From Calditrichota bacterium (GTDB lineage Bacteria > Calditrichota > Calditrichia > RBG-13-44-9 > J042), in contig JAADJD010000005.1 in NCBI GenBank assembly GCA_013150955.1, positions 31,096-95,095 on the forward strand: a stretch of 64,000 nucleotides of DNA, read 5' to 3'. The position numbers and the translations under genes were made by a program. Each line of letters opens with the position of its first letter. The stretch's first letter is position 1. The notes under the pieces are model-generated. The model had not been told where the DNA came from. It was given only the letters and a program-made list of their open reading frames with translations, and made no database searches. Shown here in pieces: positions 27,111-51,658 of the stretch.

Positions 27111-27148
27111 AATTTGTGCAAATCTATAAAAGAAAAACGAGGGGCCTG

Positions 27149-31170: not shown

Positions 31171-31683
31171 ATGTCGGAGAAAAACGGACGTCGTCGTTTA
31201 GCGATAATTGCCAGCAAGGGGACGCTGGACTGGGCATACCCGCCCTTTATTCTGGCCACAGCTGCAGGGGCCATGAACTGGGAGGTGGCCATTTTCTTTA
31301 CGTTTTACGGGTTGCCCCTGCTGAAGAAGAAGCTGGATGCTTCGGTCAGTCCACTGGGGAATCCCGCCATGCCCATGAAGATGCCCTTTGGGCCGCTGGA
31401 AAAAATTGATTTGCCGATTCCCAATCTGATCATGAGCAATGTGCCTGGATTCCAGCAGATGGCCACTGCATTGATGAAGAAAACCTTCAAGAAAAAAGGG
31501 GTGGCCAGCATTGAGGAATTGCGCGATATGGCCGTGGAAATGGACGTGCGGCTCATTGGCTGTCAGATGACCATGGACGTCTTTGGGTTCAAAAAGGAAG
31601 ATTTTATTGACGAGGCCGAAATTGGTGGAGCGGCCACATTTCTGGAATTTGCCGCCGACGCCAATGTTACCCTGTTTATTTGA
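31171..31683 (+). CDS. dsrE: DsrE/DsrF-family sulfurtransferase (DsrE3-like)
   Basis: DsrE fold pattern with conserved Cys in IGCQMTMD; located in the sHdr cluster. Confidence 0.7.
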   Translation: MSEKNGRRRLAIIASKGTLDWAYPPFILATAAGAMNWEVAIFFTFYGLPLLKKKLDASVSPLGNPAMPMKMPFGPLEKIDLPIPNLIMSNVPGFQQMATALMKKTFKKKGVASIEELRDMAVEMDVRLIGCQMTMDVFGFKKEDFIDEAEIGGAATFLEFAADANVTLFI

Positions 31684-31705: not shown

Positions 31706-32815
31706 ATGAAAGGGGCGTTTGTGGACAGGAAAAAACCATTGCGTTTAATCGATGCCGGAACCATTCCGTATCTGGAATCTCAGACTATTTATCACGCCGT
31801 GGCCCATGCCATGACCCCGGAAACGCCGGACACTGCCATCCTGGTCAGTCCCCAAACTCCGTACGTTTGCGTGGGATTCCATCAGGAGGTAGATCGTGAA
31901 GTGGATCTGGAATATTGTCAGGCGCATCAGATTCCGGTTACCCGTCGTGAGGTAGGCGGTGGGGCGGTGCTTCTGGATGCCAATCAAATTTTTACTCAAT
32001 GGGTGTTTCAGCCCGATCATGTTCCCCTGAAAGTGGTGGATCGGTTTCGGTTGCATGCGGAACCCATCATGGCCACTTATCGGGATTTTGGGGTGGAAGC
32101 CAATTTCCGGCCCATTAATGACATTCACGTAAGCGGGAAAAAGATTGGGGGCATGGGGGCAGCAGCCATTGGCAATGCAGAGGTCGTGGTCAGCTCGCTG
32201 ATGCTGGATTTCGATACCCGGACCATGGCCCGGGTGTTGAAAGTACCCAACGAGAAGTTCCGGGATAAGGTCTTTCAGGGACTGGAAAACTACATGACCA
32301 CCCTGAAAAAAGAGCTGGGGCAGATGCCGGATCGGGACGAAGTGAAACAACACTACGTCCGGCATCTGGAAGAGGTTTTGCAGCGGCCGGTCGAGTGGGG
32401 TGAGTTGACTCCTGGCGAAAAGGAGGTCATGGCCCAGTTAAATGCCCGCTTTGCCACCCGGGAATGGTTGTACCAGAAAGGTGGGCTGGTTCGAGGCGCC
32501 GTGAAGATCCACAGCGGTGTATGGGTGGGGGAAACGGCTTACAAGGCACCCGGTGGCCTGATTCGCATCACGCTCCGCATCCGGGAAAATACCATCGATG
32601 ACCTGGCCATTTCCGGGGACTTCACGTTTTATCCGCAACATCAGCTGGCGGCCTTCGAGGCCTTTTTGAAGGGCCATTCTCTGGAACCCGCCACCCTGCG
32701 GCGTACCATCGAGGCATTCTACCAGGAAACGGGCGTGCAAACACCGGGCATCGAAGTTGACCACTGGCTGACGGTTTTTGGTCAGCTGGCGGATGCGGTG
32801 GCAAAACACAGTTGA
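31706..32815 (+). CDS. lplA: Lipoate-protein ligase A-like (LplA/LipB/BirA family) for LbpA maturation
   Basis: GKKIGGMGAAAIG matches the lipoyl-AMP-binding Lys motif region of LplA; 369 aa; possible alternative GTG start at 31724. Confidence 0.75.
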   Translation: MKGAFVDRKKPLRLIDAGTIPYLESQTIYHAVAHAMTPETPDTAILVSPQTPYVCVGFHQEVDREVDLEYCQAHQIPVTRREVGGGAVLLDANQIFTQWVFQPDHVPLKVVDRFRLHAEPIMATYRDFGVEANFRPINDIHVSGKKIGGMGAAAIGNAEVVVSSLMLDFDTRTMARVLKVPNEKFRDKVFQGLENYMTTLKKELGQMPDRDEVKQHYVRHLEEVLQRPVEWGELTPGEKEVMAQLNARFATREWLYQKGGLVRGAVKIHSGVWVGETAYKAPGGLIRITLRIRENTIDDLAISGDFTFYPQHQLAAFEAFLKGHSLEPATLRRTIEAFYQETGVQTPGIEVDHWLTVFGQLADAVAKHS

Positions 32816-33074
32816 GTCCGTGAATGCATGGGAGAACAAAATACTGGGACTCCGAGAACTCAGCGAGATGTACCTGCAGGAAGCCGGAAAGTGGGTGTTG
32901 CTGGAAATTCTGGAAACCGATGCGCGCGGTCAGGCCAGTCGGGTCCGGGTGGTGAAATTGAGTCCCCGTAAGGATGATTTGCTGGACTACATGATGGAAC
33001 ACGACGAAGACTGGGATTGGCACAAACAATTCGTTATCGTCCACGCCGATCCCAAACTCTGTACGTTGCTGTAA
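32778..33074 (+). CDS. Small hypothetical protein; start uncertain
   Basis: ORF only; overlaps lplA end; no clear SD; retained because such small ORFs are conserved in sHdr loci. Confidence 0.3.
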   Translation: MVSWRMRWQNTVESVNAWENKILGLRELSEMYLQEAGKWVLLEILETDARGQASRVRVVKLSPRKDDLLDYMMEHDEDWDWHKQFVIVHADPKLCTLL

Positions 33075-33153: not shown

Positions 33154-33540
33154 ATGGATATGGAAGATCTGGAAGGCAAAAAGATTCTGGTAATTCAAAC
33201 CCACGGAGTGGATACGCCCACGCGGACGTATTCGCCGGTGTATTATGCCATTGCCGCGGCAGCCATGGAGATGGATGTGATGATCTGGTTTACCATGAAC
33301 GGTACCAATCAGTTGCGGAAAGGCGAGGCGGAAAAAATCGAATTGAAACCCGGCAGCGGGGTAACCCTGAAGACCTTGCTGGATCAGGCCCTGGACGCCG
33401 GGGTGAAATTATCCGTGTGCCAGCAAAGCATGGATCTGTGGGACATGAAGCCCGAAGACCTGATCGATGGGGTAAAGATCCTGGGAGCCACCAGCATCAT
33501 CGATCTGGCCCTGGAGGCCGATCACGTGATGTATTTCTAA
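33154..33540 (+). CDS. DsrE/DsrF-family protein (second copy, DsrE2-like)
   Basis: 128 aa; DsrE-like fold pattern with Cys in SVCQQSMD. Confidence 0.65.
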   Translation: MDMEDLEGKKILVIQTHGVDTPTRTYSPVYYAIAAAAMEMDVMIWFTMNGTNQLRKGEAEKIELKPGSGVTLKTLLDQALDAGVKLSVCQQSMDLWDMKPEDLIDGVKILGATSIIDLALEADHVMYF

Positions 33541-33685: not shown

Positions 33686-34144
33686 ATGTCAGACGTTGGG
33701 GAAGTTCGTGGATGCAGGATACCGAAGGACCTGTACTATTCGGTGGACGACCATACCTGGGTTCGCCTGAATGAGGATGGCACCGTCACCGTGGGTATGA
33801 CCGATGTGGCCCAGAATCTGGCCGGGCCGGTGCTGCATGCCAAGGTGAAGAAGGTGGGGTTGACCCGTGCCCGGGGAAAACCCATCGGCACCGTGGAAAG
33901 TGCCAAGTGGGTGGGGCCTATCAAAACACCGGTATCTGGAGAAATTGTGGAGGTGAACGAGAAATTGGCGGAAGACCCTCAATTGCTGAATCGCGATCCC
34001 TATGGTGAAGGCTGGGTGGTCAAAATGAAACCCACCAACTGGGACGAGGAGGTGAAGGACCTGGTCACCGGAGAAGAAGCGGTGGAAAAGTATCGGGAAA
34101 AGGTTGAACGGGAAGATATTAAAGCGTGTGACCATATCGAATAG
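33686..34144 (+). CDS. lbpA: Lipoate-binding protein LbpA (GcvH-like)
   Basis: GcvH-like with lipoyl-lysine motif VESAKW; GAAGGAG SD. Confidence 0.8.
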   Translation: MSDVGEVRGCRIPKDLYYSVDDHTWVRLNEDGTVTVGMTDVAQNLAGPVLHAKVKKVGLTRARGKPIGTVESAKWVGPIKTPVSGEIVEVNEKLAEDPQLLNRDPYGEGWVVKMKPTNWDEEVKDLVTGEEAVEKYREKVEREDIKACDHIE

Positions 34145-34312
34145 CGACGGTGAATGTTGCTGGATGCGGGTTGTGTGTACAACGTGACGGGGACGGGCAG
34201 AAAAAGGGTTGAGGACATGACATGCGTCAGGGCAAAGGGAATCCGCACCTGTTGACAGGGCAGGATTCTTTGCCCAAATCCATTGCAACGATGTAGCGTA
34301 AGGAGAGGGCTC

Positions 34313-35041
34313 ATGAATTTTGACATCAATTCAACGCCACTGGATTTAACCGGGGAAAAATACAGGGATGTTCCTTACGAGGAAAAGGAACGCTTGTTTA
34401 ACGAGATCAAAGCCGATGTCCGTTTTCACGATGTGCTGTATGGGTGTTATGAATGCGGGGTGTGTGTGGCGGCCTGTCCATCCGCCCGGTTCTACGACTT
34501 CAGTCCACGGGTCATTGCCCAGGCTGTGGCGCGGGAGGATGTGGAGCTGGTCTACACCCTGATGAACGATAGCATCTGGGACTGTTCGCAATGCTTTTCC
34601 TGCGATCGCTGTCCGCGGGGGAATTCGCCTGGTGGACTGATTACCCTGATGCGCGAGGTGGCGGTCAAAAACGGTCTGGAAACCGCCAAGGAAGCGCTGG
34701 AAGGCTACGGTCGCATTATTTACAAGATTATGTCCACGGGAACTCAGGTATCGCCCGATATGCTCCAGCCCAATGCCTTTCCGGACTGGGGACACCATGT
34801 GAATGAAATTGCGGAAAATCTGGATCTCTGGCGTCGTGCCCTGCCACCGGAAACCCTGCACACCGTGGAAACCGGCTGGAGTGTGAGCGAAAAAACCATC
34901 ATCGAACTTTACCTGATCTGGCACATGACCGGCGTAATGGACATGATCAAAGAAATCGATGAAGGCCTGTTCATGATTTTACAGGACGTAATGGAAGAAC
35001 GCCTGGAGGATGCCGGTTACGATGTTTTGTTCGATGAATAA
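34313..35041 (+). CDS. hdrC: Heterodisulfide reductase-like subunit C (sHdrC1), two 4Fe-4S clusters
   Basis: CYECGVCVAACP and CSQCFSCDRCP ferredoxin motifs; start at 34313 (AAGGAGA SD) rather than 34283. Confidence 0.85.
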   Translation: MNFDINSTPLDLTGEKYRDVPYEEKERLFNEIKADVRFHDVLYGCYECGVCVAACPSARFYDFSPRVIAQAVAREDVELVYTLMNDSIWDCSQCFSCDRCPRGNSPGGLITLMREVAVKNGLETAKEALEGYGRIIYKIMSTGTQVSPDMLQPNAFPDWGHHVNEIAENLDLWRRALPPETLHTVETGWSVSEKTIIELYLIWHMTGVMDMIKEIDEGLFMILQDVMEERLEDAGYDVLFDE

Positions 35042-35089: not shown

Positions 35090-36295
35090 ATGGGACAGCA
35101 AGTTATCCCGGTGGAAGAACTGATTAAATCCAAGAAAAAACCCGGTTTTAAATACACCCCCGAGGAAGCCCCCACGGAGGATTATCGAGACATCCTGTTT
35201 CAGCTGGAAAAAGAAGGCGAGCTGGAGGTCATTCGGGTTCCCGAGCCGTACGTGGAGGTAACCACCAAGTATGGTCGCAAAAAGAAAATTCCCCTGGAGC
35301 ATACCTGGCATCATAAGAGTTGCGGTCAGTGTGGGCACATTCCGGGATATTCCACATCGATTTTCTGGTTGAACCGCCAGTTTGGATTCGACTATGTGGA
35401 TCCCAGCGACCAGACCTCCTGTACAGCCTGGAACTACTACGCTTCGGCGACATCGAATGCGGAAGCCCAGGCGGCCGTGGCGGTTCGCAATTTTGCTGCA
35501 GCAGCGGAAACCGGCCGCTTCCCTCTGATCCACTGTGGTACCAGCTTCGGGCACTATAAAGAAGTGCGCCACGAACTGCTTCACCATCATGATCTGCGCC
35601 GCAAGGTGCGTGAGATTATGGAACGTCTGGGCAAAAAACTGGTCTTCCCGGAAGAAATTGTACATTACAGTGAGTGGGTTTATGCCATTCGCGATAAAAT
35701 TGCCGAGCGCCAGGTGATCGACATGAAACACATCGTGGCCTCGGTTCATCCCGCCTGTCATTATCACAAACTGGTGGAAGAGGATGCCATTTACGATCCC
35801 GAAATTTACGGGGCTCAGCGAACGGCCGTCGTGACCGGCACGCTAAAAGCCCTGGGAATCCAGATCGGGGAATATTCCAGCTGGTACGATTGCTGCGGAT
35901 TCGGATTCCGCCATATTCTGGTGTCGCGGGACTTTTCTCGTTCCTTTGCAGTGCAGCGGAAAATCGAAGTCATGAAGGAAGAAGCCAACCCCGATGTTGT
36001 CGTTACCCACGACACGGGATGCGTCACCACCCTGGATCAAAGCCAGTTTGCCGGAAAGGCACATGGCAAGAAGGTGGGCATCCCGGTCATGTCCGATTCC
36101 CAGATTGCTGCGCTGGCCATGGGGGCGCATCCCTACAAAGTGTTGCAGCTACACTGGCACAACACCGAAAACCGGCCGTTCCTGGAAAAACTGGGCATTG
36201 ACCCCGATGAAAAGTGGCGGGAATTCGAGGAAGCCCTGGAAAAATTGAAACGTGGTGAAAAACAATACTTAACCTGGGAGGATGCAGATGCCTAA
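35090..36295 (+). CDS. hdrB: Heterodisulfide reductase-like subunit B (sHdrB1), CCG domains
   Basis: Two Cys-rich CCG-type domains (CTAWNYY..., SWYDCCGFGF). Confidence 0.85.
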   Translation: MGQQVIPVEELIKSKKKPGFKYTPEEAPTEDYRDILFQLEKEGELEVIRVPEPYVEVTTKYGRKKKIPLEHTWHHKSCGQCGHIPGYSTSIFWLNRQFGFDYVDPSDQTSCTAWNYYASATSNAEAQAAVAVRNFAAAAETGRFPLIHCGTSFGHYKEVRHELLHHHDLRRKVREIMERLGKKLVFPEEIVHYSEWVYAIRDKIAERQVIDMKHIVASVHPACHYHKLVEEDAIYDPEIYGAQRTAVVTGTLKALGIQIGEYSSWYDCCGFGFRHILVSRDFSRSFAVQRKIEVMKEEANPDVVVTHDTGCVTTLDQSQFAGKAHGKKVGIPVMSDSQIAALAMGAHPYKVLQLHWHNTENRPFLEKLGIDPDEKWREFEEALEKLKRGEKQYLTWEDADA

Positions 36296-37352
36296 TCAAG
36301 ACATTCTCGTGATTGGAGGAGGCCCCGCAGGTCTGGAGGCCGCTCGTTCGATTGGAGACCTGGGATACAAAGCCATTTTAATCGAAAAACGGGATCGTCT
36401 GGGAGGTACACCGGACGAAGCCAGTTATGCCGCCTTAACCCCGGACCTTCGCAGTGCTGAGGAAGCCATGAACGCCATGATCCAGGCGGTGGAGAATAAT
36501 CCCAATGTAGACGTTCGACTGGGTACAACGGTGGTGGCTGCGGAGGGCAGTGTGGGAGACTTTAAAGTGACCATTCAAAATGGAAAGGGAAAAGAAACCC
36601 TGAACGTGGGAGCGGTGATCATTGCCACCGGCTTTCAACATTTCGATCCCGGTCGGGAAACCCAAAAATACGGGTACTATGAATATGAAGACGTCATTAC
36701 GCTGGTGGATTGCGAAAAGATGCTTAAAGCCCACCGTTTTGTGCGCCCTTCTGATGGGAAAAAGCCGGAGCGAGTATGCTTCATTCAGTGCGTGGGTTCC
36801 CGCGATCGCCGCATCGGGAATGAGTACTGTTCAAAAGTGTGTTGTGGAATCGCTTCCAAGGAGGCCATTGAAATTCGCCAGCTGGTGCCCGATTGCAAGG
36901 TGTTCATTTTTTACATCGACATGCGTATGTACGCATACTGGGAACCCGATCTGTACTGGAAGGCGCAGGAAGAACACAAGGTGAACTACGTTAAAGGCAT
37001 TGCCACGGAAATCGTCAAAAAAGGGGACAAATTGCTGGTGAAGGGAGAAGACACAACCCTGCGGCGTCCGTTTGAGATTCCCATGGACATTGTGATTCTC
37101 TCTGTGGGAATGGAGCCCAGTCAGGGAACCCGCGAAATGGCAAAGATCTTCGGGCTGAAGCAGAATAAATATCAGTTCATCGAGGCAGTCGGTGCCCCCA
37201 TGGACACGGTGAGCACGTCGGTGCCCGGTGTGTTTGCAGCTGGTGCCTGTACGGGGCCTGCGGATTTAGAGGATTCCATCTCCGCTGCCGGTCTGGCGGC
37301 CATGCGCGCCATTAAGGCCGTGCGGGAAAACGGTACCAAAAAAGCCAGCTAA
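36288..37352 (+). CDS. hdrA: Heterodisulfide reductase-like subunit A (sHdrA): FAD plus 4Fe-4S flavoprotein
   Basis: VIGGGPAGLEAA dinucleotide fold; Cys cluster CFIQCVGSRD...EYCSKVCCG. Confidence 0.85.
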   Translation: MPNQDILVIGGGPAGLEAARSIGDLGYKAILIEKRDRLGGTPDEASYAALTPDLRSAEEAMNAMIQAVENNPNVDVRLGTTVVAAEGSVGDFKVTIQNGKGKETLNVGAVIIATGFQHFDPGRETQKYGYYEYEDVITLVDCEKMLKAHRFVRPSDGKKPERVCFIQCVGSRDRRIGNEYCSKVCCGIASKEAIEIRQLVPDCKVFIFYIDMRMYAYWEPDLYWKAQEEHKVNYVKGIATEIVKKGDKLLVKGEDTTLRRPFEIPMDIVILSVGMEPSQGTREMAKIFGLKQNKYQFIEAVGAPMDTVSTSVPGVFAAGACTGPADLEDSISAAGLAAMRAIKAVRENGTKKAS

Positions 37353-37363: not shown

Positions 37364-38110
37364 ATGGCGCTGTTCATCGACAAACAATCTACCAAGGAAT
37401 TTATGCTGGAGACGCTTTCCCGGATTACCCTGGAAGAACTGGAGCAAATCCAGGCAGACCTGCATTTGAAGAGTCAATGCGTGCAGGAAATGGTTCGGCA
37501 GGCATCGGGAGGGCGTTTTTCCGATGGCACCTTGCGGCAGCTGTTGCGGTGCGTATTTGCAACCCGGCGGCGCGCCAATAAAATTGCGGACCGGTACCCG
37601 GCGGACTATTTTGCCAGACACATCCAGAGCTTGCTGGATCCAGGCAAACCGGTGGAATGGCGTTTTCAGGAATTCTTTCACGCCTTCCCGGACATTGAGG
37701 CCAGCCAGCGCTATGATCTGGCCAGCGAGATCCTCTTTTTTTCCCATCCCGATCAATACTGGATGTGGACCCGCTGGATGTGGGATCCCCGCACCCGAAC
37801 CGGTTCGCTGCCCCTGGTGCTAATGGAACAGGTTTCCCTGGAAGGCAACTCCGAGGGAGAAATTTACCGGAAGGTGGGAGAAGCCGTCCGTCACCTTCAG
37901 GAAATCGGGCGGACGCGCGAAATCCCTTCCTTTCTGCAAACCGCGTATGGGGTGTACACCTATCTGGCCTGTGTTTATGTGATTTACAGTTACACCGTGC
38001 TGCGAATGCGCATGACACAGGAGTTCAACAAGGTGATGCCGAAATTACCCGAATTTATTCGAAGGCTGCTTGGCATTTATAGATTGGAGGAATTGAAACA
38101 TGCCAGTTGA
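37364..38110 (+). CDS. Conserved hypothetical protein of sHdr loci ('hyp' between hdrA and hdrC2)
   Basis: Position and size (248 aa) match the hdrC1B1A-hyp-hdrC2B2 arrangement; no cofactor motifs. Confidence 0.65.
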   Translation: MALFIDKQSTKEFMLETLSRITLEELEQIQADLHLKSQCVQEMVRQASGGRFSDGTLRQLLRCVFATRRRANKIADRYPADYFARHIQSLLDPGKPVEWRFQEFFHAFPDIEASQRYDLASEILFFSHPDQYWMWTRWMWDPRTRTGSLPLVLMEQVSLEGNSEGEIYRKVGEAVRHLQEIGRTREIPSFLQTAYGVYTYLACVYVIYSYTVLRMRMTQEFNKVMPKLPEFIRRLLGIYRLEELKHAS

Positions 38111-39362: not shown

Positions 39363-39553
39363 CCGCCGGGGGTATCCGGAACCCGTGGTGAAGGACAACG
39401 AAGAAAGATCTCACGGTGCCGGAAACACGGGGGCAGGAAGACGGGGATCCCGCGGTTTCTGGCGATACGACGGGCGATTGGGTTGATCGGTAAGAAGATG
39501 AAAAATTAAAAATAAATCACAGCGTGAACGTTTAAGCGGCAAGGAGGTGTGGT

Positions 39554-40318
39554 ATGAACATCATTGTGCCACTTCGGCAGGTACCGGATCTGGTAGAAGA
39601 CCTGGAGATCGATGCTTCCGGGAAGGATCTGGATCGTGAATGGTTAAAATACAAAATCAATGAATTCGATGACCATGCGCTGGAAGAAGCATTGCTTTTG
39701 AAGGAAGACGTGGGCGGAACGGTTACCGCAATGGCTCTGGATGGGGATGATGTGGACAAGCTGTTATTTACGGCGGCTGCTAAAGGGGCGGATAAACTGA
39801 TTAAGGTGACCGGCGATTTTCCCCAACCGCTTTCCAGCCATGCCATTGCCAGAGCCCTGGCCAGTGCCATTCAGGGAATGGATTATCAGCTCATCCTCAT
39901 CGGCGTGCAGGCCGTGGATGAGCTGGACGGCCAGGTGGGGGTGTTGCTGGCCCATTATCTGGGTGTTCCCCACGTATCGGTGGTGACCGGGGTTCAGGTA
40001 ACCAATGGAAAGGCGGTGGTGCATAAGGAATATGCCGGTGGTGTGATGGGCGAGTTTGAGGTCACCTTACCGGCGGTGCTGGGGATTCAGGCGGCACGCC
40101 AGACCCCGCGATATGCACCGGTCAGCCGGGTGCGCATGGCCATGCGGAAATCGACCATTGAGGAGGTGAGCGCCAGCGATACCGCAGCGGGTGGGACGCC
40201 GGAAATTCGGAAACTATTCAAACCCGAAAAAGGTGCCGGCGCGCAGATGCTGGACGGTTCACCCGAAGAAGTGGCCGAAAAAATTGTGAGCATATTAAAA
40301 GAGAAGGGGATTGTGTAA
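39554..40318 (+). CDS. etfB: Electron transfer flavoprotein beta subunit
   Basis: EtfB family N-terminus (MNIIVPLRQVPD) and length; AAGGAGG SD. Confidence 0.9.
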   Translation: MNIIVPLRQVPDLVEDLEIDASGKDLDREWLKYKINEFDDHALEEALLLKEDVGGTVTAMALDGDDVDKLLFTAAAKGADKLIKVTGDFPQPLSSHAIARALASAIQGMDYQLILIGVQAVDELDGQVGVLLAHYLGVPHVSVVTGVQVTNGKAVVHKEYAGGVMGEFEVTLPAVLGIQAARQTPRYAPVSRVRMAMRKSTIEEVSASDTAAGGTPEIRKLFKPEKGAGAQMLDGSPEEVAEKIVSILKEKGIV

Positions 40319-41280
40319 TGAGCGACGTTCTGGTTTTTGCCGAACATTTACAGGGAAATTTTACGGATTCCACGTTTGAGTTGTTGGGAAAAGGCCGGGA
40401 ACTGGCCGCTGCCACCGGTGACCATCTGGTCGCCGCGCTGTTGGGTAACGGGGTCGATGACATGGTTCATCAGCTGGGTGCGGCTGATAAGGTGGTGGCA
40501 GTGGAGCACGATCAACTGGCGGAATTCAATCCCGAAGCCCATACCCTGGCTCTGAAAGCCGTGGTGCAGGCCGTAAATCCCGCCATCATTTTAATCCCTT
40601 ATACCTCCATGGGAATGGATCTGGCCTCTGCCCTGTCTGCCGATCTGGACATCCCGCTGGCATCTTATGTTGCGGATGTTCGGGTGGAGGATGGAAAACT
40701 GGTTACCGTGAGCCAGATGTATGGCGGTAAAGTGAATGTGGAATCGGAAATTGCGGGAAATCAGAAGATCGTGTCCGTACTGGCAGGCGCTTTCCCCGCC
40801 GATGCCGGTAAAAAAGAGGGCAGTCCGGCCGTGGAAAAACTGGATCCCCCTGCCGAGCTGAGCAATTTGCGGGTATCGTTTAAACAGCTGATTGAACCGG
40901 AGGGCGGGGATGTGGACATCACCCAGCAGGACGTGCTGGTGAGCATTGGACGTGGGATTCAGAGCGAGGAAAACATTCCCATGGTCGAGGAACTGGCACA
41001 AAAGCTGGGTGGTGCCGTGTCAGCCTCTCGTCCCATTATTGACAATAAATGGCTACCCAAGAGTCGCCAGGTGGGCAAATCCGGCCTGAAGGTGAAACCC
41101 AAATTATACCTGGCCCTGGGAATTTCGGGAGCACCGGAGCATATCGAAGGAATGAAGGATGCAGAGTTGATCATCGCCATCAATTCCGATCCCAACGCCC
41201 CCATTTTTGAATACGCCCATTACGGGGTGGTGGGCGACCTGTTCGATATTGTGCCGGTGCTGAAGGAGAAACTGGGGTAG
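40318..41280 (+). CDS. etfA: Electron transfer flavoprotein alpha subunit
   Basis: EtfA FAD-binding C-terminal domain (LYLALGISGAPEHIEGM); start overlaps etfB stop. Confidence 0.9.
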   Translation: MSDVLVFAEHLQGNFTDSTFELLGKGRELAAATGDHLVAALLGNGVDDMVHQLGAADKVVAVEHDQLAEFNPEAHTLALKAVVQAVNPAIILIPYTSMGMDLASALSADLDIPLASYVADVRVEDGKLVTVSQMYGGKVNVESEIAGNQKIVSVLAGAFPADAGKKEGSPAVEKLDPPAELSNLRVSFKQLIEPEGGDVDITQQDVLVSIGRGIQSEENIPMVEELAQKLGGAVSASRPIIDNKWLPKSRQVGKSGLKVKPKLYLALGISGAPEHIEGMKDAELIIAINSDPNAPIFEYAHYGVVGDLFDIVPVLKEKLG

Positions 41281-41514
41281 GCAAAAACCATCCTCCCCAC
41301 CATCGCAACCCGAATCCGGGGTGTCCGTCCATGGTGTCGGGATGGCGGGTTACCATCCGGTATCCCGACCTTTCCCGGCAGAACAGGAGGGGAACCCATT
41401 CGGGGCAACAGGCTGGCAAGAAACGTTGTCCTGCCAGCAGGGAAATCATAAGCCATGCTGAGGAATGGTCATCCACAATACCATTGACGGGTCATTTAAA
41501 TTGGAGGAGCGCCC

Positions 41515-43599
41515 ATGCCTGAGTTGATACCCACCCGCGAAATCTTTCGACATTTCCCCACGTGGGCTCAGTTGCTGTTTTATGCCATTGCTTTTGGCGG
41601 CACGCTGATCTTTTTCTACGGTGTGTATTCCCGCATTCAGAAATATCGTCAGGGTCGCCCGGAAAACCGATTCGACAATTTGCCCGGACGATTTGTCCAG
41701 GCCCTGACCACCGTTTTGCGAAATAAAACTATTTATCGGGGGGATCCCTTTGCCGGATTTGCCCACAGTCTCATCCTGTGGGGCTTCATTGTCCTGTTCA
41801 TTGGAACGGTGATTGTGTTCATCGATCACGACATCCTGCGGCTGCTGGGGTACCGCTTGCTTCAGGGAACGTTCTATCTGTGGTTTTCTCTGATTCTGGA
41901 TATTTTTGGGGTATTATTTCTGGTTGGATTGGTGCTCATGTGGTTTCGTCGCACCCTGGTCATGCCTTTTAAGCTGGACTACAGCCGGGTGGATCGCAAA
42001 GAAGAAGAATACGATCGCCGGGGGTATGCCACCGATGATGCGGTTTTTCTGGGCCTGCTGTTTTTTATCGGAGTTAGTGGTTTCCTGATAGAAGGTTTCC
42101 GCATTTATGCCGATCAACCGGAGTGGGCCAGATGGTCTCCGGTGGGCTGGTTGACGGCGGAATTTCTCAGTTTTATGCGCCTGAGTCCGGCCACCATCAA
42201 TTTCTGGCATGCCACCACCTGGTGGACGCACGCAGTGGCAGTGATGATTTTTCTGGCCTACATTCCGTTTTCCAAAGCCATGCACATGTTCACCGATTTT
42301 GCCAATCTAATGTTTCGGGATGAAAACGTGCCCCGGCGGTTGCCCGGTATCACCGAGGCGCAAATGAAAGAAGGCATGGGCTACAAAAAAATTACCGATT
42401 TTACCTGGAAGGAATTGCTGGACCTGGATGCCTGCACCAAGTGTGGGCGTTGCCACGAAGCCTGCCCGGCCCGAAGTGCAGGACAACCCCTTTCCCCGCG
42501 GGATTTGATCCTGGATCTGCGCACCTTTGCCGATGCGACCTTCGGCACCAGCGAATGGTTTACTCAGAAGGTTAACGGGTGGGATACCCGCACCGCCGTC
42601 GTCGCCGGAGATGTGATTAAAGCCGAAACCCTGTGGTCCTGTACCACCTGCATGGCCTGTGTGGAGAGTTGTCCCGTGGGCATCGAACATCTGCTTCACA
42701 TCGTGCAGATGCGCCGCACGCTGGTGGACGAAGGTAACATGGATGATTCCCTGCAGGAAGCCCTGATGAACATCGGCGATTATGGTAATTCCTTCGGGCA
42801 ACCTGAACGCGCCCGCGGTAAATGGACTCAGGGACTGGATTTTAAAATTAAGGATGCCCGCAAAGAGGAAGTGGAATATTTGTGGTTCGTTGGAGATTAT
42901 GCCTCATTCGATCCCCGTATTCAGGAAAATTCCAGAACCGTGGCCCGTATTTTCAATAAATTGGGCATCGATTTTGGCATCCTGTATGACGGGGAGAAAA
43001 ACGCGGGCAATGATGTGCGTCGGGTGGGAGAAGAAGGGTTGTATGAAATGCTGGTGGAAGACAATATGGCCGTTTTGCAAAAAGCCAGATTTAAAAAGAT
43101 TGTGACCACCGATCCGCATTCCTACAACACCCTGAAGAATGAATATCCCGAATTTGGGCTGGAAGCGCCCGTTTTTCACTACACGCAGGTGCTGGCCCAG
43201 TTGATTGACGAGGGAAAATTGCGGTTTAATAAGAAGTTGAATTACAAAGTCACCTACCACGATCCCTGCTACCTGGGACGCTATAATCGGGAAACCGAAG
43301 CACCGCGGAAGATTTTGCAGGCATTGGGGGTGGAATTTAAGGAAATGCCCCGTTGTGGTACCAATACCTTCTGTTGTGGGGCCGGGGGTGGTCGCATCTG
43401 GATGGATGATTCCAATATCCAGGAACGCCCCAGCGAGCAACGGATTAGAGAAGCCCTGGCGCTGGGAGAGCTGGATTATTTCGTTGTAGCCTGTCCCAAG
43501 GATTATGCCATGTATTCCGATGCGGTGAAGACCTCGGGAAATGAGGGGAAGATTGAGGTAAAGGACATTATTCAACTGGTGGAGGAAGCGTTGAGTTAA
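41515..43599 (+). CDS. Membrane-bound Fe-S oxidoreductase (N-terminal ~5-TM His-containing cytochrome-b-like anchor fused to HdrD/GlpC-like 2x[4Fe-4S] and CCG domains); candidate Etf:menaquinone oxidoreductase
   Basis: Hydrophobic N-terminal 280 aa with conserved His; CTKCGRCHEACP and CTTCMACVESCP; CCG motifs CYLGRYNRE and CGTNTFCCGAGGG. Confidence 0.85.
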   Translation: MPELIPTREIFRHFPTWAQLLFYAIAFGGTLIFFYGVYSRIQKYRQGRPENRFDNLPGRFVQALTTVLRNKTIYRGDPFAGFAHSLILWGFIVLFIGTVIVFIDHDILRLLGYRLLQGTFYLWFSLILDIFGVLFLVGLVLMWFRRTLVMPFKLDYSRVDRKEEEYDRRGYATDDAVFLGLLFFIGVSGFLIEGFRIYADQPEWARWSPVGWLTAEFLSFMRLSPATINFWHATTWWTHAVAVMIFLAYIPFSKAMHMFTDFANLMFRDENVPRRLPGITEAQMKEGMGYKKITDFTWKELLDLDACTKCGRCHEACPARSAGQPLSPRDLILDLRTFADATFGTSEWFTQKVNGWDTRTAVVAGDVIKAETLWSCTTCMACVESCPVGIEHLLHIVQMRRTLVDEGNMDDSLQEALMNIGDYGNSFGQPERARGKWTQGLDFKIKDARKEEVEYLWFVGDYASFDPRIQENSRTVARIFNKLGIDFGILYDGEKNAGNDVRRVGEEGLYEMLVEDNMAVLQKARFKKIVTTDPHSYNTLKNEYPEFGLEAPVFHYTQVLAQLIDEGKLRFNKKLNYKVTYHDPCYLGRYNRETEAPRKILQALGVEFKEMPRCGTNTFCCGAGGGRIWMDDSNIQERPSEQRIREALALGELDYFVVACPKDYAMYSDAVKTSGNEGKIEVKDIIQLVEEALS

Positions 43600-45997: not shown

Positions 45998-47470
45998 CTA
46001 ATCCCCCTCCGCCAATCTTTCTTCCGCAATCTTCTGGAACACCTTTCGGTTGGGCTTAATCATGTATTCGGTCTTTTCGGGCCAGGGGAAAAAGTGGTCT
46101 GGAATTTTAAATCCAGGCAAAAACGCCCGGAGCAGTTGACGCATCCGGTCCGCATCCAATTCGGGGGCGTCCTCGTTCATTTCCAGAAAGGCAACCGGGC
46201 GCTGCCCGTATTCAGCATGCGGCACCGGCACCACCAGCGCCTGTTTGACACCTGGCAACCGCAGCAACATGGCTTCTATTTCTTCCGGCTGAATATTTTC
46301 CCCTCCCGAAATGAACATGTTATCCTTACGTCCCACCACCTTTAAATATCCATCAATCGTCCAGCGGCCAATATCCCCGGTGTGGAACCAGCCCAACTCG
46401 TCCACCGGACGATCCAGTTGCCCCTCTTTCCAGTATCCTTTAAACAGGGTCGGGCCTTTTACCAGAATTTCGCCATCGGCAGCGATGTGCACTTCCCGGT
46501 ATGGCAGTGGCTTTCCCGCAGTTAACAATTGCTGCAGGGTATCCCCCGGACGCGTGGTGGTTATCTGCGAACCCATCTCCGTGGACCCATAGGTGGTAAA
46601 CAGCGGGGGCCGAAGATCCAGAGCCTGCTGGATGAGGTGCGGCGGTATGGGACCGCCACCTGTCAATATGCATTTAAGCGACGAACGATAGCCCGGCCCG
46701 GGAATCTCCTGCAGAAAACGTTGCAACTGGGTGGCCACCACGGAAAGGTGAGTAATTTGATGGCGCTCGATGATTTCCGGGGTAATGGCGCGGTTTTCCG
46801 GGATGACAATGGCTCCACCCCCCAGCAAGGCCCGAAAAATAATAGCCAATCCCCCTACATGAAACAACGGCAGGCTGAGCAGCCAGCGATCACCCACTTT
46901 GAAGGGGATGTTCTGATTGGCTCCGCGAGCATTGTAATAATGGTTCGCCCAGGTGTGACAGGCCGCTCGCGGTTCACCGGTGGTGCCGGAGGTGAAAATA
47001 AGCGTCAGTTCTGGATCCGGATGATGCCACGCGCCCTCCACAATCGGTTGTTTTCGAGAAGCAAATAACGATTCCAGCTCCATCAGGGGAATTGTCCAGT
47101 CTGGTGGCAGTGCCGATGCCAGTTCGGCTTCAACGATCAGCGCGTGGGCCTGCACGGTGGCCAGATGCATGCGCAAGTTTTCGATGGGGAGCTTTGGATT
47201 CAATGGCGCGGTTAGAATCTCCCGATACCAGCAGGCCATCAGCAGAACCACCAGCTCCCAGCGATTGCGGCACCAGATGGCCAGACGTTTACCCGGGCCA
47301 AGATCCATTTCCTGTAACCGATCGGCAATTTCCCGGATCATCCGTTCGTATTCCGCAAAGGAGATGATCCGGTCAGGCGTTACCAGCGCCGGGGCCTCAG
47401 GCATCTGGCGTGCCCGTTGTTGTAACATGGGAACCATCCCTGATAGATGCAATTTCAACGCCCCCTTCAT
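45998..47470 (-). CDS. menE: O-succinylbenzoate-CoA ligase
   Basis: AMP-binding motif IFTSGTTGEPR; men operon context. Confidence 0.8.
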   Translation of the reverse strand: MKGALKLHLSGMVPMLQQRARQMPEAPALVTPDRIISFAEYERMIREIADRLQEMDLGPGKRLAIWCRNRWELVVLLMACWYREILTAPLNPKLPIENLRMHLATVQAHALIVEAELASALPPDWTIPLMELESLFASRKQPIVEGAWHHPDPELTLIFTSGTTGEPRAACHTWANHYYNARGANQNIPFKVGDRWLLSLPLFHVGGLAIIFRALLGGGAIVIPENRAITPEIIERHQITHLSVVATQLQRFLQEIPGPGYRSSLKCILTGGGPIPPHLIQQALDLRPPLFTTYGSTEMGSQITTTRPGDTLQQLLTAGKPLPYREVHIAADGEILVKGPTLFKGYWKEGQLDRPVDELGWFHTGDIGRWTIDGYLKVVGRKDNMFISGGENIQPEEIEAMLLRLPGVKQALVVPVPHAEYGQRPVAFLEMNEDAPELDADRMRQLLRAFLPGFKIPDHFFPWPEKTEYMIKPNRKVFQKIAEERLAEGD

Positions 47471-48615
47471 ATACCGCTCCTGATTAATGTGAGCATATTT
47501 CGATTAACCTGGTATTGATGGTCGATTACCTCCGTTAAGAAAAACGCGCCGCCCCTGGGCCTGAGAGAGGTTTCCAGAATGTCCTGCTTAAAATACAAAA
47601 AGGTGCTCAGCCCCTGCGGGGACAAATCGTCGATCCAGGCACTGGCCAGTTGTACCAGCGTGGCCAGGGTATACCCGGTGTAAAAAGAGCAGCTCAGGAT
47701 AGGGCGAATGCCCCGTTGTTGTACCCGTTTGATGAGCTGGTAGGTGGTGCTGAGTTCCCCAAAAAACTCCGGTTTAAAAACGATCGCCTGCACACCGGGC
47801 AACAGCATTTTTTCCACATCCCGGGCCTCCCCGATGGATTCATCCAGGGCCACCGGGATACCAGTTGCCTCGTAAAATTGGGGGACCATCCGGGGATCTC
47901 TCAGGGGTTCTTCGATGTACTCGATGTTCAACGGGGCCACGGCTTTTCCGAAGGCAATGGCCGCCTCCAGCTCCCAGCGGCGATTGGCATCCAGCCGCAG
48001 CTGAATCTGATCCCCCAGCGCCGATCGAATGTCCTCCAGCAGGCGAATTTCCTGTCGGAACGGTTTTCGGCCAACCTTGATTTTAATTGCCGGATATCCT
48101 TCTTCCCGGAACGTCATGCAGCGAAAAACCGCCTGTTCATTCAGATCGTTCAACAGGGCGTTTGTCGGTATCCGCAGGTGGGGTTTTCCGTTCCAGATGT
48201 GCGACAGCGGTGTGTCGTGTTGCTGGCACAACAGGTGGAGAAATGCCTGATCCAGTGCAAATCGAATGAGAGGCGAAACGGGCACTTTCCATTTCCAGTG
48301 AATGGGAAACATATCGCTGGTGCGCTGGAAAAGGTTGATATCCCCGCTGTGGATCATCTGCAGCGTCAGCAAAAGCTCCAGGCGAATCTGATAGCCAATC
48401 TGGGGATGAAAGCCAGGCAGATAGGAGACTTCTCCCAGCCCCCGTCGACCCTCGGCATCCTCCAGTTCAATAAAAAATCCATGACGAACTCGCATCCGTT
48501 TAACCGAATATTGCAATTGCCGCAGCAAAGGCAGTCGATACGCATATAGCCGCACGTGTTGAATGGTGGAGCGAGCGATAAACGCCTGTGATCGTGTTGA
48601 ATGGGACGATGGCAT
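47467..48615 (-). CDS. menC: o-succinylbenzoate synthase (enolase superfamily)
   Basis: MR/MLE-family metal-binding region (IKIKVGRK..., DANRRW, IEYIEEPL); operon context. Confidence 0.7.
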   Translation of the reverse strand: MPSSHSTRSQAFIARSTIQHVRLYAYRLPLLRQLQYSVKRMRVRHGFFIELEDAEGRRGLGEVSYLPGFHPQIGYQIRLELLLTLQMIHSGDINLFQRTSDMFPIHWKWKVPVSPLIRFALDQAFLHLLCQQHDTPLSHIWNGKPHLRIPTNALLNDLNEQAVFRCMTFREEGYPAIKIKVGRKPFRQEIRLLEDIRSALGDQIQLRLDANRRWELEAAIAFGKAVAPLNIEYIEEPLRDPRMVPQFYEATGIPVALDESIGEARDVEKMLLPGVQAIVFKPEFFGELSTTYQLIKRVQQRGIRPILSCSFYTGYTLATLVQLASAWIDDLSPQGLSTFLYFKQDILETSLRPRGGAFFLTEVIDHQYQVNRNMLTLIRSGI

Positions 48616-48906
48616 CCGTTACCACCCTTTTCCTATTCTTTGAATGGACTGAGGGCTACCGGGCACCGGGAAGATCCTGATTCCCATTCTCAGAAATCAC
48701 CGCAACCAGTGATTCGCTTCTTTTAAACGGCGGTTATCCGGGTAAAATGCCTGTTCCCGGAACCCTGCCTGAGCGGGTTGTTTCCCGGTGACTCGATTGA
48801 TTGGGCACCTCCTGGATTGGCATAAGGGCCAATCCACACATTGTATGTCAATCCGTTCCGTTTTTATGCCAGGTGAACCGTCTTGAAGGTGAAAAAGATT
48901 TTTTCA

Positions 48907-49818
48907 TCATCCCGGCAGAATCCATCCAATGGAAAACAGGAGACTGTATATGAATACCATTTTTCCAGTGCGTGCAAGGGTTTGATTGAGCACTGCGGGA
49001 TCATTGAAGTTAAAAACGGTCTTGATTTCACCAATTGCCGGGATGAGGATGAGAATAGCCAGGATACTGAAGTAATGGGTGTGCAGGGTCATGGACAGAT
49101 ACACGGGCAGGAAAGCCGCAACCAGGATGCAGAACACATATTCCCACTGGGCAAAATGTTTGCCGAAGCGAACCGCCAGGGTTTTCTTACCCACTTCTCG
49201 ATCGGTGTCGATGTCGCGCAGATTGTTCACCGTGAGCAGGGCGGTGGAGAGGAGTCCGGGCGCCAGGCCTGCAATGGCCACCTCCGGGGTTAGCGTTAGC
49301 GCCTGCACGTAATACGTCCCCCCGACAGCCACCGGGCCAAAGAAAATGAGCACGAAAATATCCCCCAGCCCGTTGTAGCCCAGTGGGTACGGGCCACCGG
49401 TGTACAGAATACCGAACAGTATGGAAAGTAGCCCGATGATCAGGATGGGAATGCCCCCGCGCCAGATGAGATAGGTGCCAATGACAAAGGCCAGGAAAAA
49501 GGTGAATACAAAGGCGCGTTTCATGGTGGTCGGGGCGATCAGTCCAGCCTGAGTCACCCGCAATGGGCCCAGCCGTCCCTGTTGATCCGCCCCTTTCAGA
49601 TAATCGTAATAATCATTGGCCAGGTTGGTGCCAATCTGAATAAGAACGGCACCCACCAGTGCGGCCAGTGCGGCCAGCCAGTGGAATTTCCCGTCGGCAT
49701 AGGCCATTGCGGTTCCCATCAATACCGGGGCAACGGATGCCCACAGCGTTTTGGGACGTGCCGCCAGCCACCAGACTTTCCAGCGGGGTAACGCCGTTTG
49801 TGTATTCACCATTTCCAT
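48907..49818 (-). CDS. menA: 1,4-dihydroxy-2-naphthoate polyprenyltransferase (UbiA family)
   Basis: Polytopic membrane protein with UbiA-family Asp-rich motif NDYYD. Confidence 0.85.
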   Translation of the reverse strand: MEMVNTQTALPRWKVWWLAARPKTLWASVAPVLMGTAMAYADGKFHWLAALAALVGAVLIQIGTNLANDYYDYLKGADQQGRLGPLRVTQAGLIAPTTMKRAFVFTFFLAFVIGTYLIWRGGIPILIIGLLSILFGILYTGGPYPLGYNGLGDIFVLIFFGPVAVGGTYYVQALTLTPEVAIAGLAPGLLSTALLTVNNLRDIDTDREVGKKTLAVRFGKHFAQWEYVFCILVAAFLPVYLSMTLHTHYFSILAILILIPAIGEIKTVFNFNDPAVLNQTLARTGKMVFIYSLLFSIGWILPG

Positions 49819-49935
49819 CGGTCTTCCTGGATCGATTCAAACATACCTCCCGGGGGCTTTCACCACCCGGGAGGATAATTTATCATTCAAAAAGGAATTA
49901 CCCAACAGGTAGCGGTAGATTTTTTCTTTATCGCA

Positions 49936-50757
49936 TCAGGGACGCCGGGGGAACCGGGAAAAATCGGGTTTGCGCTTTTCCAGAAAAGCATTCCGGCCTT
50001 CCTGTCCTTCTTCCGTCTGATAAAAGAGCATGGTGGCACATCCTGCCAGTTCCTGCAATCCCGCCTGCCCATCGCAATCGGCATTCAGCGCCGCCTTCAA
50101 GCAGCGAATGGCGGTAGGGGAGTTGGCCAAAATTTCTTTGGCCCATTTGATGGTTTCTTCTTCCAGCTTTTCCAGAGGCACCACGGTATTTACCAGTCCC
50201 ATTTCCAGCGCTTCCTGAGCGGTATACTGGCGGCACAGGAACCAGATTTCCCGCGCCTTTTTCTGGCCCACCACGCGTGCCAGGTAGCTGGCACCGTACC
50301 CTCCATCGAAGGAGCCGACCCGCGGGCCGGTCTGGCCAAAAATGGCATTGTCAGCAGCGATGGTCAGATCGCACAGCAGGTGCAGGACATGTCCCCCGCC
50401 AATGGCATACCCGGCAACCATGGCGATAACCGGTTTCGGGCAGGTGCGAATTTGCCGCTGAAAATCCAGCACATTTAACCGGTGAATGCCTTTCTCATCC
50501 ACATAACCGGCATCGCCGCGGACTTTTTGATCCCCACCGGAACAAAAGGCCTTGGTGCCTTTCCCGGTCAGAATGATCACCCCAATTTGCTCATCATCGC
50601 GGGCATCGGCCAGCGCCTGGGACATTTCCATTACCGTCAGTGGACGAAACGCATTGCGCACTTCCGGGCGATTGATGGTGATCTTGGCGATTCCCTCTGC
50701 CTTGTGATACTCGATGTCGGTAAATTTTCCGGCTTCTACCCAATTCACAGTACTCAT
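49936..50757 (-). CDS. menB: 1,4-dihydroxy-2-naphthoyl-CoA synthase
   Basis: Crotonase fold; MenB-specific N-terminus ([12 protein letters not shown]) and C-terminal [18 protein letters not shown]. Confidence 0.9.
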
Positions 50758-50797
50758 GTGTTCCTCCTATGATTGCTTATGTGTTTGTTGTATGATT

Positions 50798-51643
50798 TTA
50801 TTCGAGGGGGTGGTGTAAAAAGTCCAGGATTGCCTGTACAAAGGCGTCGGGATTTTCTCGGTGTATGTTGTGTCCACATCCAGCAATGACCTTTACGCTG
50901 CATTTAGGTGCCATCCTGACCATTTCCTCCGAAATGGCTCTAAATTTAGGGTCTTTTTCGCCGGTCAACAATAATAAAGGTTTTTTCAATGTGGGGAGGT
51001 GTTCCCACAGGGAAGGCTGCACCCCGGTGCCCATGCCCCGTAACACGTGAGCCAGCCATTCCGGACGGTTGTTCAGGCGCTGGCGGAAAAGGGCATCGAA
51101 TGATGGATGGTGTTTCAGCGTGCGGAAGAGGGGCTGGTTGTACCATTTTTCCAGAAAGCGAGGGAAGGGTTCCCGTTCCAGCTGGCGGGCCCAGTGCTCA
51201 TCCCACTGGCGGCGCTGGTGCCGTTCCGATGCGGTTCGCAGCCCCGGGGAGGCCGATTCCAGGACGATGGCCCGAAACAGATCGGGATAATGCACGGCCA
51301 GGTACAGTGCCAGACGCCCGCCCAGGGAGTATCCGATCAACACCACCGGGCTTTCAGAAGCGGTGCCAATCCATTGAGCCAGGGCCGCTGCCACACGGGG
51401 CATGGTAAAACAACGAGCATGGCCCGCTGGTGTGACCTCGGTTTTCCCGTGACCGGGTAAATCCACCGCCAGCGTGCGGTACCTTTCGGGAAGGCGTTTG
51501 ATCACATCTTCCCAGTCCAGATGACTTCCCAGAAAGCCATGAAAGAAGACCAGTGTGGGGTGGTGCGATCGTCCCTTTTCTCGAATGAAGAATCGATATC
51601 CACAGGGCGGTTGTTCGATAAGGGTGACGGATTCGGTTGCCAT
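50798..51643 (-). CDS. menH: SHCHC synthase (alpha/beta hydrolase)
   Basis: LVFFHGFLGS and GYSLGG nucleophile elbow; operon context. Confidence 0.75.
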   Translation of the reverse strand: MATESVTLIEQPPCGYRFFIREKGRSHHPTLVFFHGFLGSHLDWEDVIKRLPERYRTLAVDLPGHGKTEVTPAGHARCFTMPRVAAALAQWIGTASESPVVLIGYSLGGRLALYLAVHYPDLFRAIVLESASPGLRTASERHQRRQWDEHWARQLEREPFPRFLEKWYNQPLFRTLKHHPSFDALFRQRLNNRPEWLAHVLRGMGTGVQPSLWEHLPTLKKPLLLLTGEKDPKFRAISEEMVRMAPKCSVKVIAGCGHNIHRENPDAFVQAILDFLHHPLE

Positions 51644-51658
51644 GCTTATTCCGTGTTT

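Follow-up and report, generated by a model that had tools for sequence, protein, structure and literature searches.

To which acceptor the sulfur-oxidising heterodisulfide reductase-like (sHdr) system with its lipoate-binding protein LbpA hands its electrons is a real open point, and it is this question that is raised by a locus in a 64,000-nt stretch of Calditrichota DNA (hereafter the window, to which all coordinates refer), where genes for an electron-transfer flavoprotein (ETF or Etf) and for a membrane oxidoreductase, here called EMO, follow a set of shdr genes. We consider it probable that the stretch from about 30.5 to 43.6 kb constitutes a type II sHdr-LbpA sulfur-oxidation cluster of which etfBA-emo form the distal part, and, taken together with this reading of the cluster, a route from sHdr by way of Etf and EMO to menaquinone likewise appears probable from the sequence.

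The link as such is not new. A preliminary description of the locus held that such a route was not part of the described sHdr model, but this claim has to be given up, since the link has been in print since 2014 and belongs to what is now termed the type II shdr cluster, of which the locus is an ordinary member. Justice et al. (2014) found that every Sulfobacillus genome has an 'hdr gene cluster II', in which etfAB occurs together with a long HdrC-like gene encoding transmembrane helices and CCG domains (PMC4378227), Cao et al. (2018) described, as 'Group III', clusters of hdr and lbpA genes to which etfBA is linked (PMC6067878), and Islam et al. (2019) reported a 19-gene hdrABC-etfAB-tusA-dsrE-lbpA cluster that is about 45-fold induced in Thermomicrobium roseum and suggested that Hdr electrons pass through ETF to the respiratory chain (PMC6776052). 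In Tanabe et al. (2024), citing Kümpel et al. (2024), type II is given as shdrC1B1AHB3-etfAB-emo and electron transfer to menaquinone is proposed, and two papers count as members those with shdrC1B1AHB3 and etfAB in one syntenic cluster (PMC11094781, PMC11582611).

Gene content and conserved linkage of the cluster

All genes of the cluster are found on the plus strand in the order tusA-like, tusA, dsrE2, sLpl, a small open reading frame (ORF), dsrE3, lbpA, shdrC1, shdrB1, shdrA, shdrH, shdrB3, etfB, etfA and emo (Table 1). A check of the ORFs agrees with the preliminary description, which had placed etfB, etfA and a 694-residue ORF on the same strand after an hdr gene ending at 39362, and the start of etfA shares one nucleotide with the stop of etfB. 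The genes shdrC1, B1, A and H occur in that order at 34283-38110, an order which is repeated in related loci, and they are accompanied by a fused shdrB3, by etfAB 191 nt after B3, by emo, and by genes for LbpA, a lipoate ligase and TusA and DsrE proteins. The fused B3 and the presence of etfBA-emo therefore make this a type II and not a type I cluster, since the latter (shdrC1B1AHC2B2, as in Hyphomicrobium denitrificans and Aquifex aeolicus) shares sHdrC1, B1, A, H, LbpA, lipoate ligase and TusA/DsrE with the window but has separate HdrC2 and HdrB2 and neither etfAB nor emo. With the published type II clusters the window has in common both the gene set and its order, including the fused shdrB3, etfBA, emo, TusA, DsrE, LbpA and lipoate ligase, and the functional proposal that electrons travel via EtfAB and EMO to menaquinone; the host is however different, being here a Calditrichota metagenome-assembled genome (MAG), while the emphasis in the literature is on Chloroflexota, Actinobacteriota and Bacillota.

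As for the individual proteins, sHdrA carries the cysteine motif C166-x3-C170-VGSRD-x7-C183-S-x2-C187-C188, and sHdrB3 unites two CxxCxxCxxxC motifs and a CCG domain in a single ORF of 420 residues, which is 100% identical to a protein from a 'Calditrichaeota bacterium' MAG and has homologues of 419-426 residues in all related loci. No Pfam or NCBIfam match was obtained for sHdrH, an orthologue of which lies between hdrA and B3 in nearly all loci covering that stretch, and Pfam LplA-B_cat matches the orthologue of the lipoate-protein ligase in one relative (L001; related loci are denoted by L numbers). Homologues of the 68-residue ORF are present at the equivalent position in 36 loci, and the ORF is also called as a gene in L001.

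The preliminary description suggested checking whether etfBA and the oxidoreductase accompany shdr genes in related genomes as well, and this is indeed the case. An alignment of sHdrB3 homologues served as query, with one genome per species and the best 80 of 195 relatives kept, and the six-frame ORFs of the related loci were searched with the proteins of the window. Where at least 8 kb is available downstream of B3, etfB is found on the same strand in 48 of 48 loci and emo in 46 of the 48, and the 23 loci that lack etfB all break off less than 5 kb beyond B3. Conversely, each of the five places retrieved by EMO similarity alone (62-90% identity, including an 'Acidobacteria' MAG) is an shdr cluster. 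The hdr-etf-emo linkage is far beyond chance, and according to the record titles it extends over MAGs of Calditrichaceae, Saprospiraceae, Lewinellaceae, Cyclobacteriaceae, Rhodothermales, KSB1, Planctomycetota, Ktedonobacteraceae/Chloroflexia, Clostridiales and 'Deltaproteobacteria', the closest relatives of the window cluster being MAGs of Calditrichaceae, Bacteroidota, KSB1 and Planctomycetota. The distance from B3 to etfB is -4 to about 600 nt in 16 loci (an artefactual value for L079 being left out), about 1.5 kb in most Planctomycetota loci and 3.6-6.4 kb in Bacteroidota, where the interval is occupied by a second lbpA and lipoate genes; the window, in which etfB follows B3 directly, differs in this respect from most of its Bacteroidota relatives. 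Furthermore, emo is followed in several phyla by genes for lipoate ligases or radical-SAM enzymes, and in L084 etfA and emo lie 6 kb apart, with lbpA and lipoate genes in between. Since lbpA and lipoate genes thus lie between as well as after them, etfBA and emo are interspersed among the shdr-lbpA genes rather than appended to them.

It could be argued that the adjacency is nonetheless fortuitous and that etfBA-emo encode a housekeeping ETF:menaquinone oxidoreductase system for fatty-acid or amino-acid oxidation, given that EMO/EtfD has been characterised in beta-oxidation, that etfB and emo are both preceded by long spacers, and that a thiolase gene is found at 8442-9641. The thiolase gene is however 30 kb off, among unrelated genes, and no acyl-CoA dehydrogenase was seen in any inspected cluster. 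Together with a linkage that is conserved across many phylum-level labels, is recovered from EMO as well as from B3 and is interleaved with lipoate-maturation genes elsewhere, this therefore disposes of chance adjacency, which we regard as extremely improbable.

Even among very close relatives the genes downstream of B3 have changed their order, since in L004 (WGBF01000566.1, 10674-15595) a B3 that is 95% identical to that of the window has a second lbpA and a ligase-like gene behind it, the contig stopping before any etf gene, whereas in the window and in L005 etfB comes directly after B3.

The membrane oxidoreductase, its flavoprotein and sHdrB3

Judged by homology and predicted fold, the 694-residue protein is an ETF:menaquinone oxidoreductase of the EMO/EtfD type. 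It aligns with Mycobacterium smegmatis EtfD (MsEMO, PDB 9ojn) over both the membrane and the soluble part (E 1.9e-81, 28% identity, HMMER), and an AlphaFold2 model with a predicted local distance difference test score (pLDDT) of 79 and a predicted template modelling score (pTM) of 0.78 matches 9ojn over its whole length in Foldseek (E 8.8e-32, TM-score 0.83 by query and 0.78 by target); HdrB and NarI align with parts of the protein only. A resemblance to the proposed Etf:menaquinone oxidoreductases of syntrophs had been noted in the preliminary description. Hydropathy and the model agree on five predicted transmembrane helices, located in the model at residues 16-45, 78-111, 118-149, 169-200 and 225-252, with two short connecting helices, and five helices is the topology described for EMO proteins. 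The N-terminal region, which in a profile search weakly resembles the QmoC membrane domain, is named here a predicted five-helix NarI-like cytochrome-b domain.

Conservation of ligands was evaluated in 169 sequences, comprising the EMO of the window, its 120 best database matches and the 48 sHdr-linked loci. Invariant among these are H84, H239 and H257, which align with H78, H223 and H241 of MsEMO and with the heme ligands H87, H233 and H251 of the Syntrophus aciditrophicus enzyme (SaEMO), as well as the two cubane motifs CxxCxxCxxxC (C307/310/313/317 and C376/379/382/386). There is no cysteine between residues 386 and 585, and the sole cysteine-bearing CCG half-domain contains C585, C614, C620, C621 and C660. 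About five transmembrane helices, histidines and two [4Fe-4S] motifs are thus found as first described, but the plural 'CCG domains' of that description is an overstatement, since only one half bears cysteines. At the proximal non-cubane site C585, C620, C621, C660 and H535 are conserved, the last corresponding to H583, the histidine ligand of the non-cubane cluster in MsEMO, and an invariant Asp663 takes the position of MsEMO Cys712; C614 is an additional, near-invariant cysteine. The distal cluster ligands are replaced by residues other than cysteine at all four positions (D461, N496, D533 and S/T536) in 169 of 169 sequences.

The two solved enzymes are similar in overall design. MsEMO (PDB 9OJN; EMBO J 2026, PMC13083937) shares with the EMO of the window five transmembrane helices, the heme b histidine pair, two cubanes and the histidine ligand of a non-cubane cluster, which is putative in the window, and its electron cryomicroscopy structure reveals how ETF is wired, over Fe-S clusters and heme b, to the menaquinone site (PMC13083937); it differs in having a disordered C-terminal tail of about 265 residues, which the window EMO lacks, in its distal cluster, the linear [3Fe-4S] D1, all four ligands of which are replaced in the window, and in its genomic partner, which is beta-oxidation as opposed to sHdr. 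SaEMO (mBio 2022, PMC8805022; bioRxiv 10.64898/2026.08.18.745454) has the same three-domain architecture and a similarly non-bifurcating Etf of the adenosine monophosphate (AMP) type as partner, and the preprint describes a like architecture with ETF docked through EtfB (bioRxiv 10.64898/2026.08.18.745454). In addition to a twin heme it possesses a distal [4Fe:5S] cluster, and it operates a reverse redox loop with methylmenaquinone driven by the proton motive force, whereas the distal Fe-S site is missing from the EMO of the window. Menaquinone would be the substrate reduced by the latter enzyme.

EtfAB of the window is most likely a non-bifurcating carrier of the AMP type with one flavin adenine dinucleotide (FAD), comparable to the Etf that partners EMO in Syntrophus. 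DGDTAQVGP, the motif by which the bifurcating FAD is recognised, is reported to be missing from non-bifurcating Etfs (PMC9232219), and while the bifurcating proteins 5ol2_B, 6fah_B and 4kpu_B have IDGDTAQVG at the aligned site, EtfB of the window reads 122-DELDGQVGV-130, which agrees with the motif in four of nine positions; nor is the motif found at this site in 59 sHdr-linked EtfBs. Among solved structures, the closest relative of EtfB is the beta subunit of Methylophilus methylotrophus W3A1 ETF (140.7 bits), followed by the bifurcating 5ol2_B (88.4 bits), and that of EtfA is the W3A1 alpha subunit (1.3e-56), though by a small margin (195 against 184 bits). A bifurcating Etf was rejected on account of the absent motif and these closest solved relatives. 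In W3A1, ETF is reduced one electron at a time by the [4Fe-4S] cluster of trimethylamine dehydrogenase, which provides a precedent for the reduction of an ETF by an Fe-S protein.

A further clue comes from sHdrB3, which over 392 residues is 40% identical to the soluble domain (residues 307-693) of the EMO encoded close by (E 7e-96) and has EtfD 9ojn as its closest solved relative (203 bits, against 69 bits for HdrC). Among the 150 best relatives of sHdrB3 obtained from 1.84 billion representatives, 106 were EMO-like proteins of at least 600 residues, matched in their C-terminal 330 residues or so. By their distal ligands these fall into the classes CCCC (MsEMO-like, 47), CCCG (SaEMO-like, 9), CCSC (10) and a class without cysteine (about 25), to which the window EMO belongs. 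Moreover, Glu388 of sHdrB3 occupies the position of Asp663 in EMO, and the paralogy of the two domains together with the acidic residue that both have at this ligand position suggests that Etf may dock on both in a like manner. We therefore entertain, as a tentative and somewhat doubtful idea, that the sHdr-linked EMOs form a distinct subclass without a distal cluster and with an aspartate in the proximal one, and that Etf would shuttle between two homologous docking platforms, being loaded at sHdrB3 and unloaded at EMO. The docking symmetry and the one-cluster subclass may both be new; the former was not met in the literature available to us, which did not extend to the key review by Kümpel et al. 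(2024).

Transcription and the proposed electron route

The stretch from about 30.5 to 43.6 kb would form one sigma-54-dependent transcription unit with its promoter at 30534, a reading which is based on a sigma-54-type element at the head of the cluster only, the lack of terminators, and the absence from its interior of an intergenic repeat described below. The element, TGGAACGCCGTTTGCA, lies about 25 nt ahead of the first tusA-like gene and recurs at the equivalent place in L005, L004 and L009, a TGGTAT-N5-TTGCT variant being found there in the KSB1 loci L032 and L045, so that relatives from both Calditrichaceae and KSB1 have it at this place; none is present in either internal spacer, and a single match of this type is not significant in itself (34 found against 38 expected with up to two mismatches). 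A homologue of the histidine kinase encoded directly upstream occupies the equivalent position in L005, L014, L032 and L045, and the sigma-54-dependent response regulator is conserved there in the same four loci and in L059. This upstream two-component regulator sets the window apart from published type II clusters, and since the type I shdr regulators in the literature are ArsR-type repressors it may furthermore represent a regulatory mode different from that of type I.

The preliminary description had seen no terminator between the hdr genes and the genes that follow, and both a terminator scan and folding support it. Neither the 191-nt nor the 234-nt gap holds a terminator-like site on the plus strand, the scan of the window being at background (25 against 21.7 in shuffles), or a hairpin followed by a U-run. 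The fold z-score is -0.63 for the spacer at 39363-39553 and -2.08 for that at 41281-41514, where 6 of 200 shuffles fold equally well. Rfam returned nothing for either gap at E values up to 0.1, and a scan for sigma-70 promoters gave 10 sites against 15.1 in shuffles, none of them on the plus strand in either spacer.

On the basis of these observations we propose that TusA and DsrE carriers would deliver sulfane sulfur to the cytoplasmic sHdr, which would oxidise it with the aid of lipoylated LbpA, and that the Fe-S clusters of sHdrB3 would pass the departing electrons on to the FAD of the non-bifurcating EtfAB. EtfAB would then dock on the cytoplasmic HdrD-like domain of EMO and donate single electrons to its one non-cubane cluster, from where they would pass over the two cubane [4Fe-4S] clusters to heme b (His84/His257) and possibly a distal heme at His239, to reduce menaquinone. 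We infer, in other words, that the electrons of Etf stem from sHdr, that they flow in this direction, that the genes are co-transcribed from 30534 and that menaquinone is the acceptor. The route, which the preliminary description had likewise put forward, is supported by the conserved synteny, the homology of EMO to EtfD, the non-bifurcating type of Etf and the lack of terminators, and retains the status of a proposal.

The electrons might alternatively enter Etf from dihydrolipoamide on LbpA by way of a lipoamide-oxidising enzyme, in which case sHdrB3 would be nothing but a lipoamide-disulfide reductase. This option, also kept by the preliminary description, is in keeping with the retention of LbpA and its ligase in every type II cluster and with the view in the literature that type I sHdrB2 is probably a disulfide reductase. 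Profile scans found no dihydrolipoamide dehydrogenase-like gene in the cluster, however, and the close paralogy of sHdrB3 to the Etf-docking domain of EMO fits direct docking of Etf better, wherefore we hold lipoamide as the source to be unlikely. The flow could also be reversed, with the proton motive force pushing electrons from menaquinol through EMO and Etf into sHdr, so that the module would be an input instead of an exit and would furnish electrons of low potential for reducing lipoamide or NAD+ or for the lipoyl-synthase genes. The Syntrophus EMO is indeed bidirectional, serving in enoyl-CoA respiration, and the three proximal and distal heme histidines of SaEMO are invariant in the sHdr-linked EMOs. 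Oxidation of sulfane sulfur to sulfite yields electrons that require an acceptor, however, and the cluster encodes no other acceptor module, while type II lacks the second HdrB-type disulfide-reducing site of type I, all of which renders reverse flow decidedly improbable.

Several points weigh against the route from sHdr through Etf and EMO and against the reading of the cluster on which it builds. Electron transfer from sHdr or LbpA to Etf stands as a proposal in the literature, the source is an uncultured MAG known from its sequence alone, and the synteny data come entirely from MAGs whose taxonomic labels and contigs were taken as deposited. The spacers of 191 and 234 nt are long enough to leave room for internal promoters, the promoter scan of which covers the sigma-70 type only, and an internal promoter is possible in the AT-rich stretch 39498-39521. 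Furthermore, to judge from its ligands, the electron-entry site of the sHdr-linked EMO subfamily is different from that of both solved EMOs, since the four distal cysteines are absent and an aspartate replaces one proximal cysteine. The SaEMO preprint does however describe the distal non-cubane site as variable within the EMO family (bioRxiv 10.64898/2026.08.18.745454), and the loss of the distal cysteines is therefore a difference between subclasses which does not exclude the protein from the EMO family. Likewise, the flavin in the SaEMO:ETF complex is about 12 Å from the proximal and about 13 Å from the distal cluster, and with the two at nearly equal distance electrons could still enter where the distal cluster has been lost.

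Neighbouring genes, repeats and wider significance

Features of the cluster and its surroundings are collected in Table 1; no tRNA is found within the window.

Table 1. Coordinates of the cluster genes, regulatory features and neighbouring operon in the window
Feature	Coordinates	Strand	Basis or remark
Sensor histidine kinase (PAS, HisKA, HATPase_c)	27116..28669	+	Pfam; directly upstream of cluster
Sigma-54-dependent (NtrC-type) response regulator	28638..30038	+	Pfam Response_reg, Sigma54_activat, HTH_8
Sigma-54-type -24/-12 promoter-like element TGGAACGCCGTTTGCA	30534..30549	+	one mismatch to TGGCAC-N5-TTGCW
TusA-like small protein without Cys-Pro motif	30574..30807	+	translation; homologues in 41 loci
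TusA sulfur carrier, LLCPMP motif	30819..31058	+	translation; homologues in 49 loci
DsrE2 sulfur carrier	31171..31683	+	NCBIfam SulfCarrDsrE2 220 bits, cutoff 210
Lipoate-protein ligase, sLpl(AB) type	31706..32815	+	NCBIfam lipoyltrans/LplAB/LplB, all below curated cutoffs
Conserved 68-residue ORF, no family match	32868..33074	+	translation; between lipoate ligase and dsrE3
DsrE-family sulfur transferase, DsrE3-like	33154..33540	+	Pfam DsrE 3.9e-20
LbpA, GcvH-like lipoate-binding protein	33686..34144	+	Pfam GCV_H 9.9e-41; ESAK lipoyl-lysine motif, K74
sHdrC1, two cubane [4Fe-4S] motifs	34283..35041	+	Pfam Fer4_8; NCBIfam HdrC 2.5e-24; Cys pattern
sHdrB1, CCG domain protein, proposed catalytic subunit	35090..36295	+	Pfam CCG; NCBIfam HdrB 6.2e-34
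sHdrA, FAD plus Fe-S flavoprotein	36282..37352	+	Pfam Pyr_redox_2; NCBIfam HdrA2 1.3e-76
sHdrH, 248 residues, conserved hypothetical protein of shdr clusters	37364..38110	+	position between hdrA and B3
sHdrB3, fused HdrC2/HdrB2-like, 420 residues	38100..39362	+	Pfam Fer4 plus CCG
Spacer, 191 nt	39363..39553	+	strong Shine-Dalgarno AAGGAGG ahead of etfB
EtfB, most likely non-bifurcating type, 254 residues	39554..40318	+	Pfam ETF 1.6e-27
EtfA, FAD-binding subunit, 320 residues	40318..41280	+	Pfam ETF plus ETF_alpha, about 1e-33
Spacer, 234 nt, GC-rich	41281..41514	+	GGAGGAG ahead of emo start
Predicted EMO/EtfD-type ETF:(methyl)menaquinone oxidoreductase, 694 residues	41515..43599	+	Pfam CCG 2.4e-18; 4Fe-4S dicluster
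Menaquinone operon menE, C, A, B, H, D, F, menG/ubiE	45998..56477	-	all eight above NCBIfam cutoffs

The men operon downstream of emo had been cited in support of the route, and as had been stated it is complete and lies at 46-56.5 kb. Its adjacency to emo is however a weak argument, since the operon is convergent to the shdr cluster, from which a 2.4-kb repeat array separates it, and since it is found next to emo in the closest relatives L001, L002 and L005 only; in L003, which has the most similar EMO (90% identity), a different gene follows emo. The idea that the men operon belongs to the same functional unit was accordingly rejected, and its predicted gene products indicate that the organism makes menaquinone and nothing more.

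The array that lies between emo and the convergent menE, from stop to stop (43600-46000), consists of four tandem units of about 609-631 bp, which hold arrays of the heptamer AAATCCG (30 matches of 21-mer length against 0.01 expected), and terminator-like hairpins are present on the minus strand. Rfam gives three identical sub-threshold matches to Acido-Lenti-1 RNA on the same strand, at 44147-44191, 44756-44800 and 45385-45429 (34.4 bits, the gathering score being 37). The equivalent stretch in the closest relative measures only about 400 bp, and the array is therefore regarded as a lineage-specific expansion.

An interspersed intergenic 22-mer with the core TACGAATTACACGAATTAACAC furthermore occurs in 17 copies on both strands of the window, where none is expected, at 3507, 14458, 14512, 17208, 22669, 26587, 26752, 30150, 43669, 44264, 44871, 45501, 56729, 56891, 58940, 59144 and 62171, with no copy between 30171 and 43669. 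It looks like an element of the repetitive extragenic palindrome or miniature inverted-repeat transposable element (REP/MITE) type. The copies at 30150 and 43669 were considered as borders of a mobile island, but this was rejected given that the 17 copies are intergenic and spread across the whole window. At 60315-62090 a 591-residue multiheme cytochrome c with Cytochrome_C7 and c3 domains is encoded.

With the electron acceptor of sHdr being the point at issue, the link to Etf and EMO would have mattered had it been unknown. As it is, the locus adds a type II cluster in Calditrichota and in many MAGs of Bacteroidota, KSB1 and Planctomycetota, a version of the cluster that appears to be regulated by sigma-54, and, in the EMO subclass with one putative non-cubane cluster and the paralogy of B3 and EMO, leads from the sequence as to how electrons may be passed from sHdr to the membrane.

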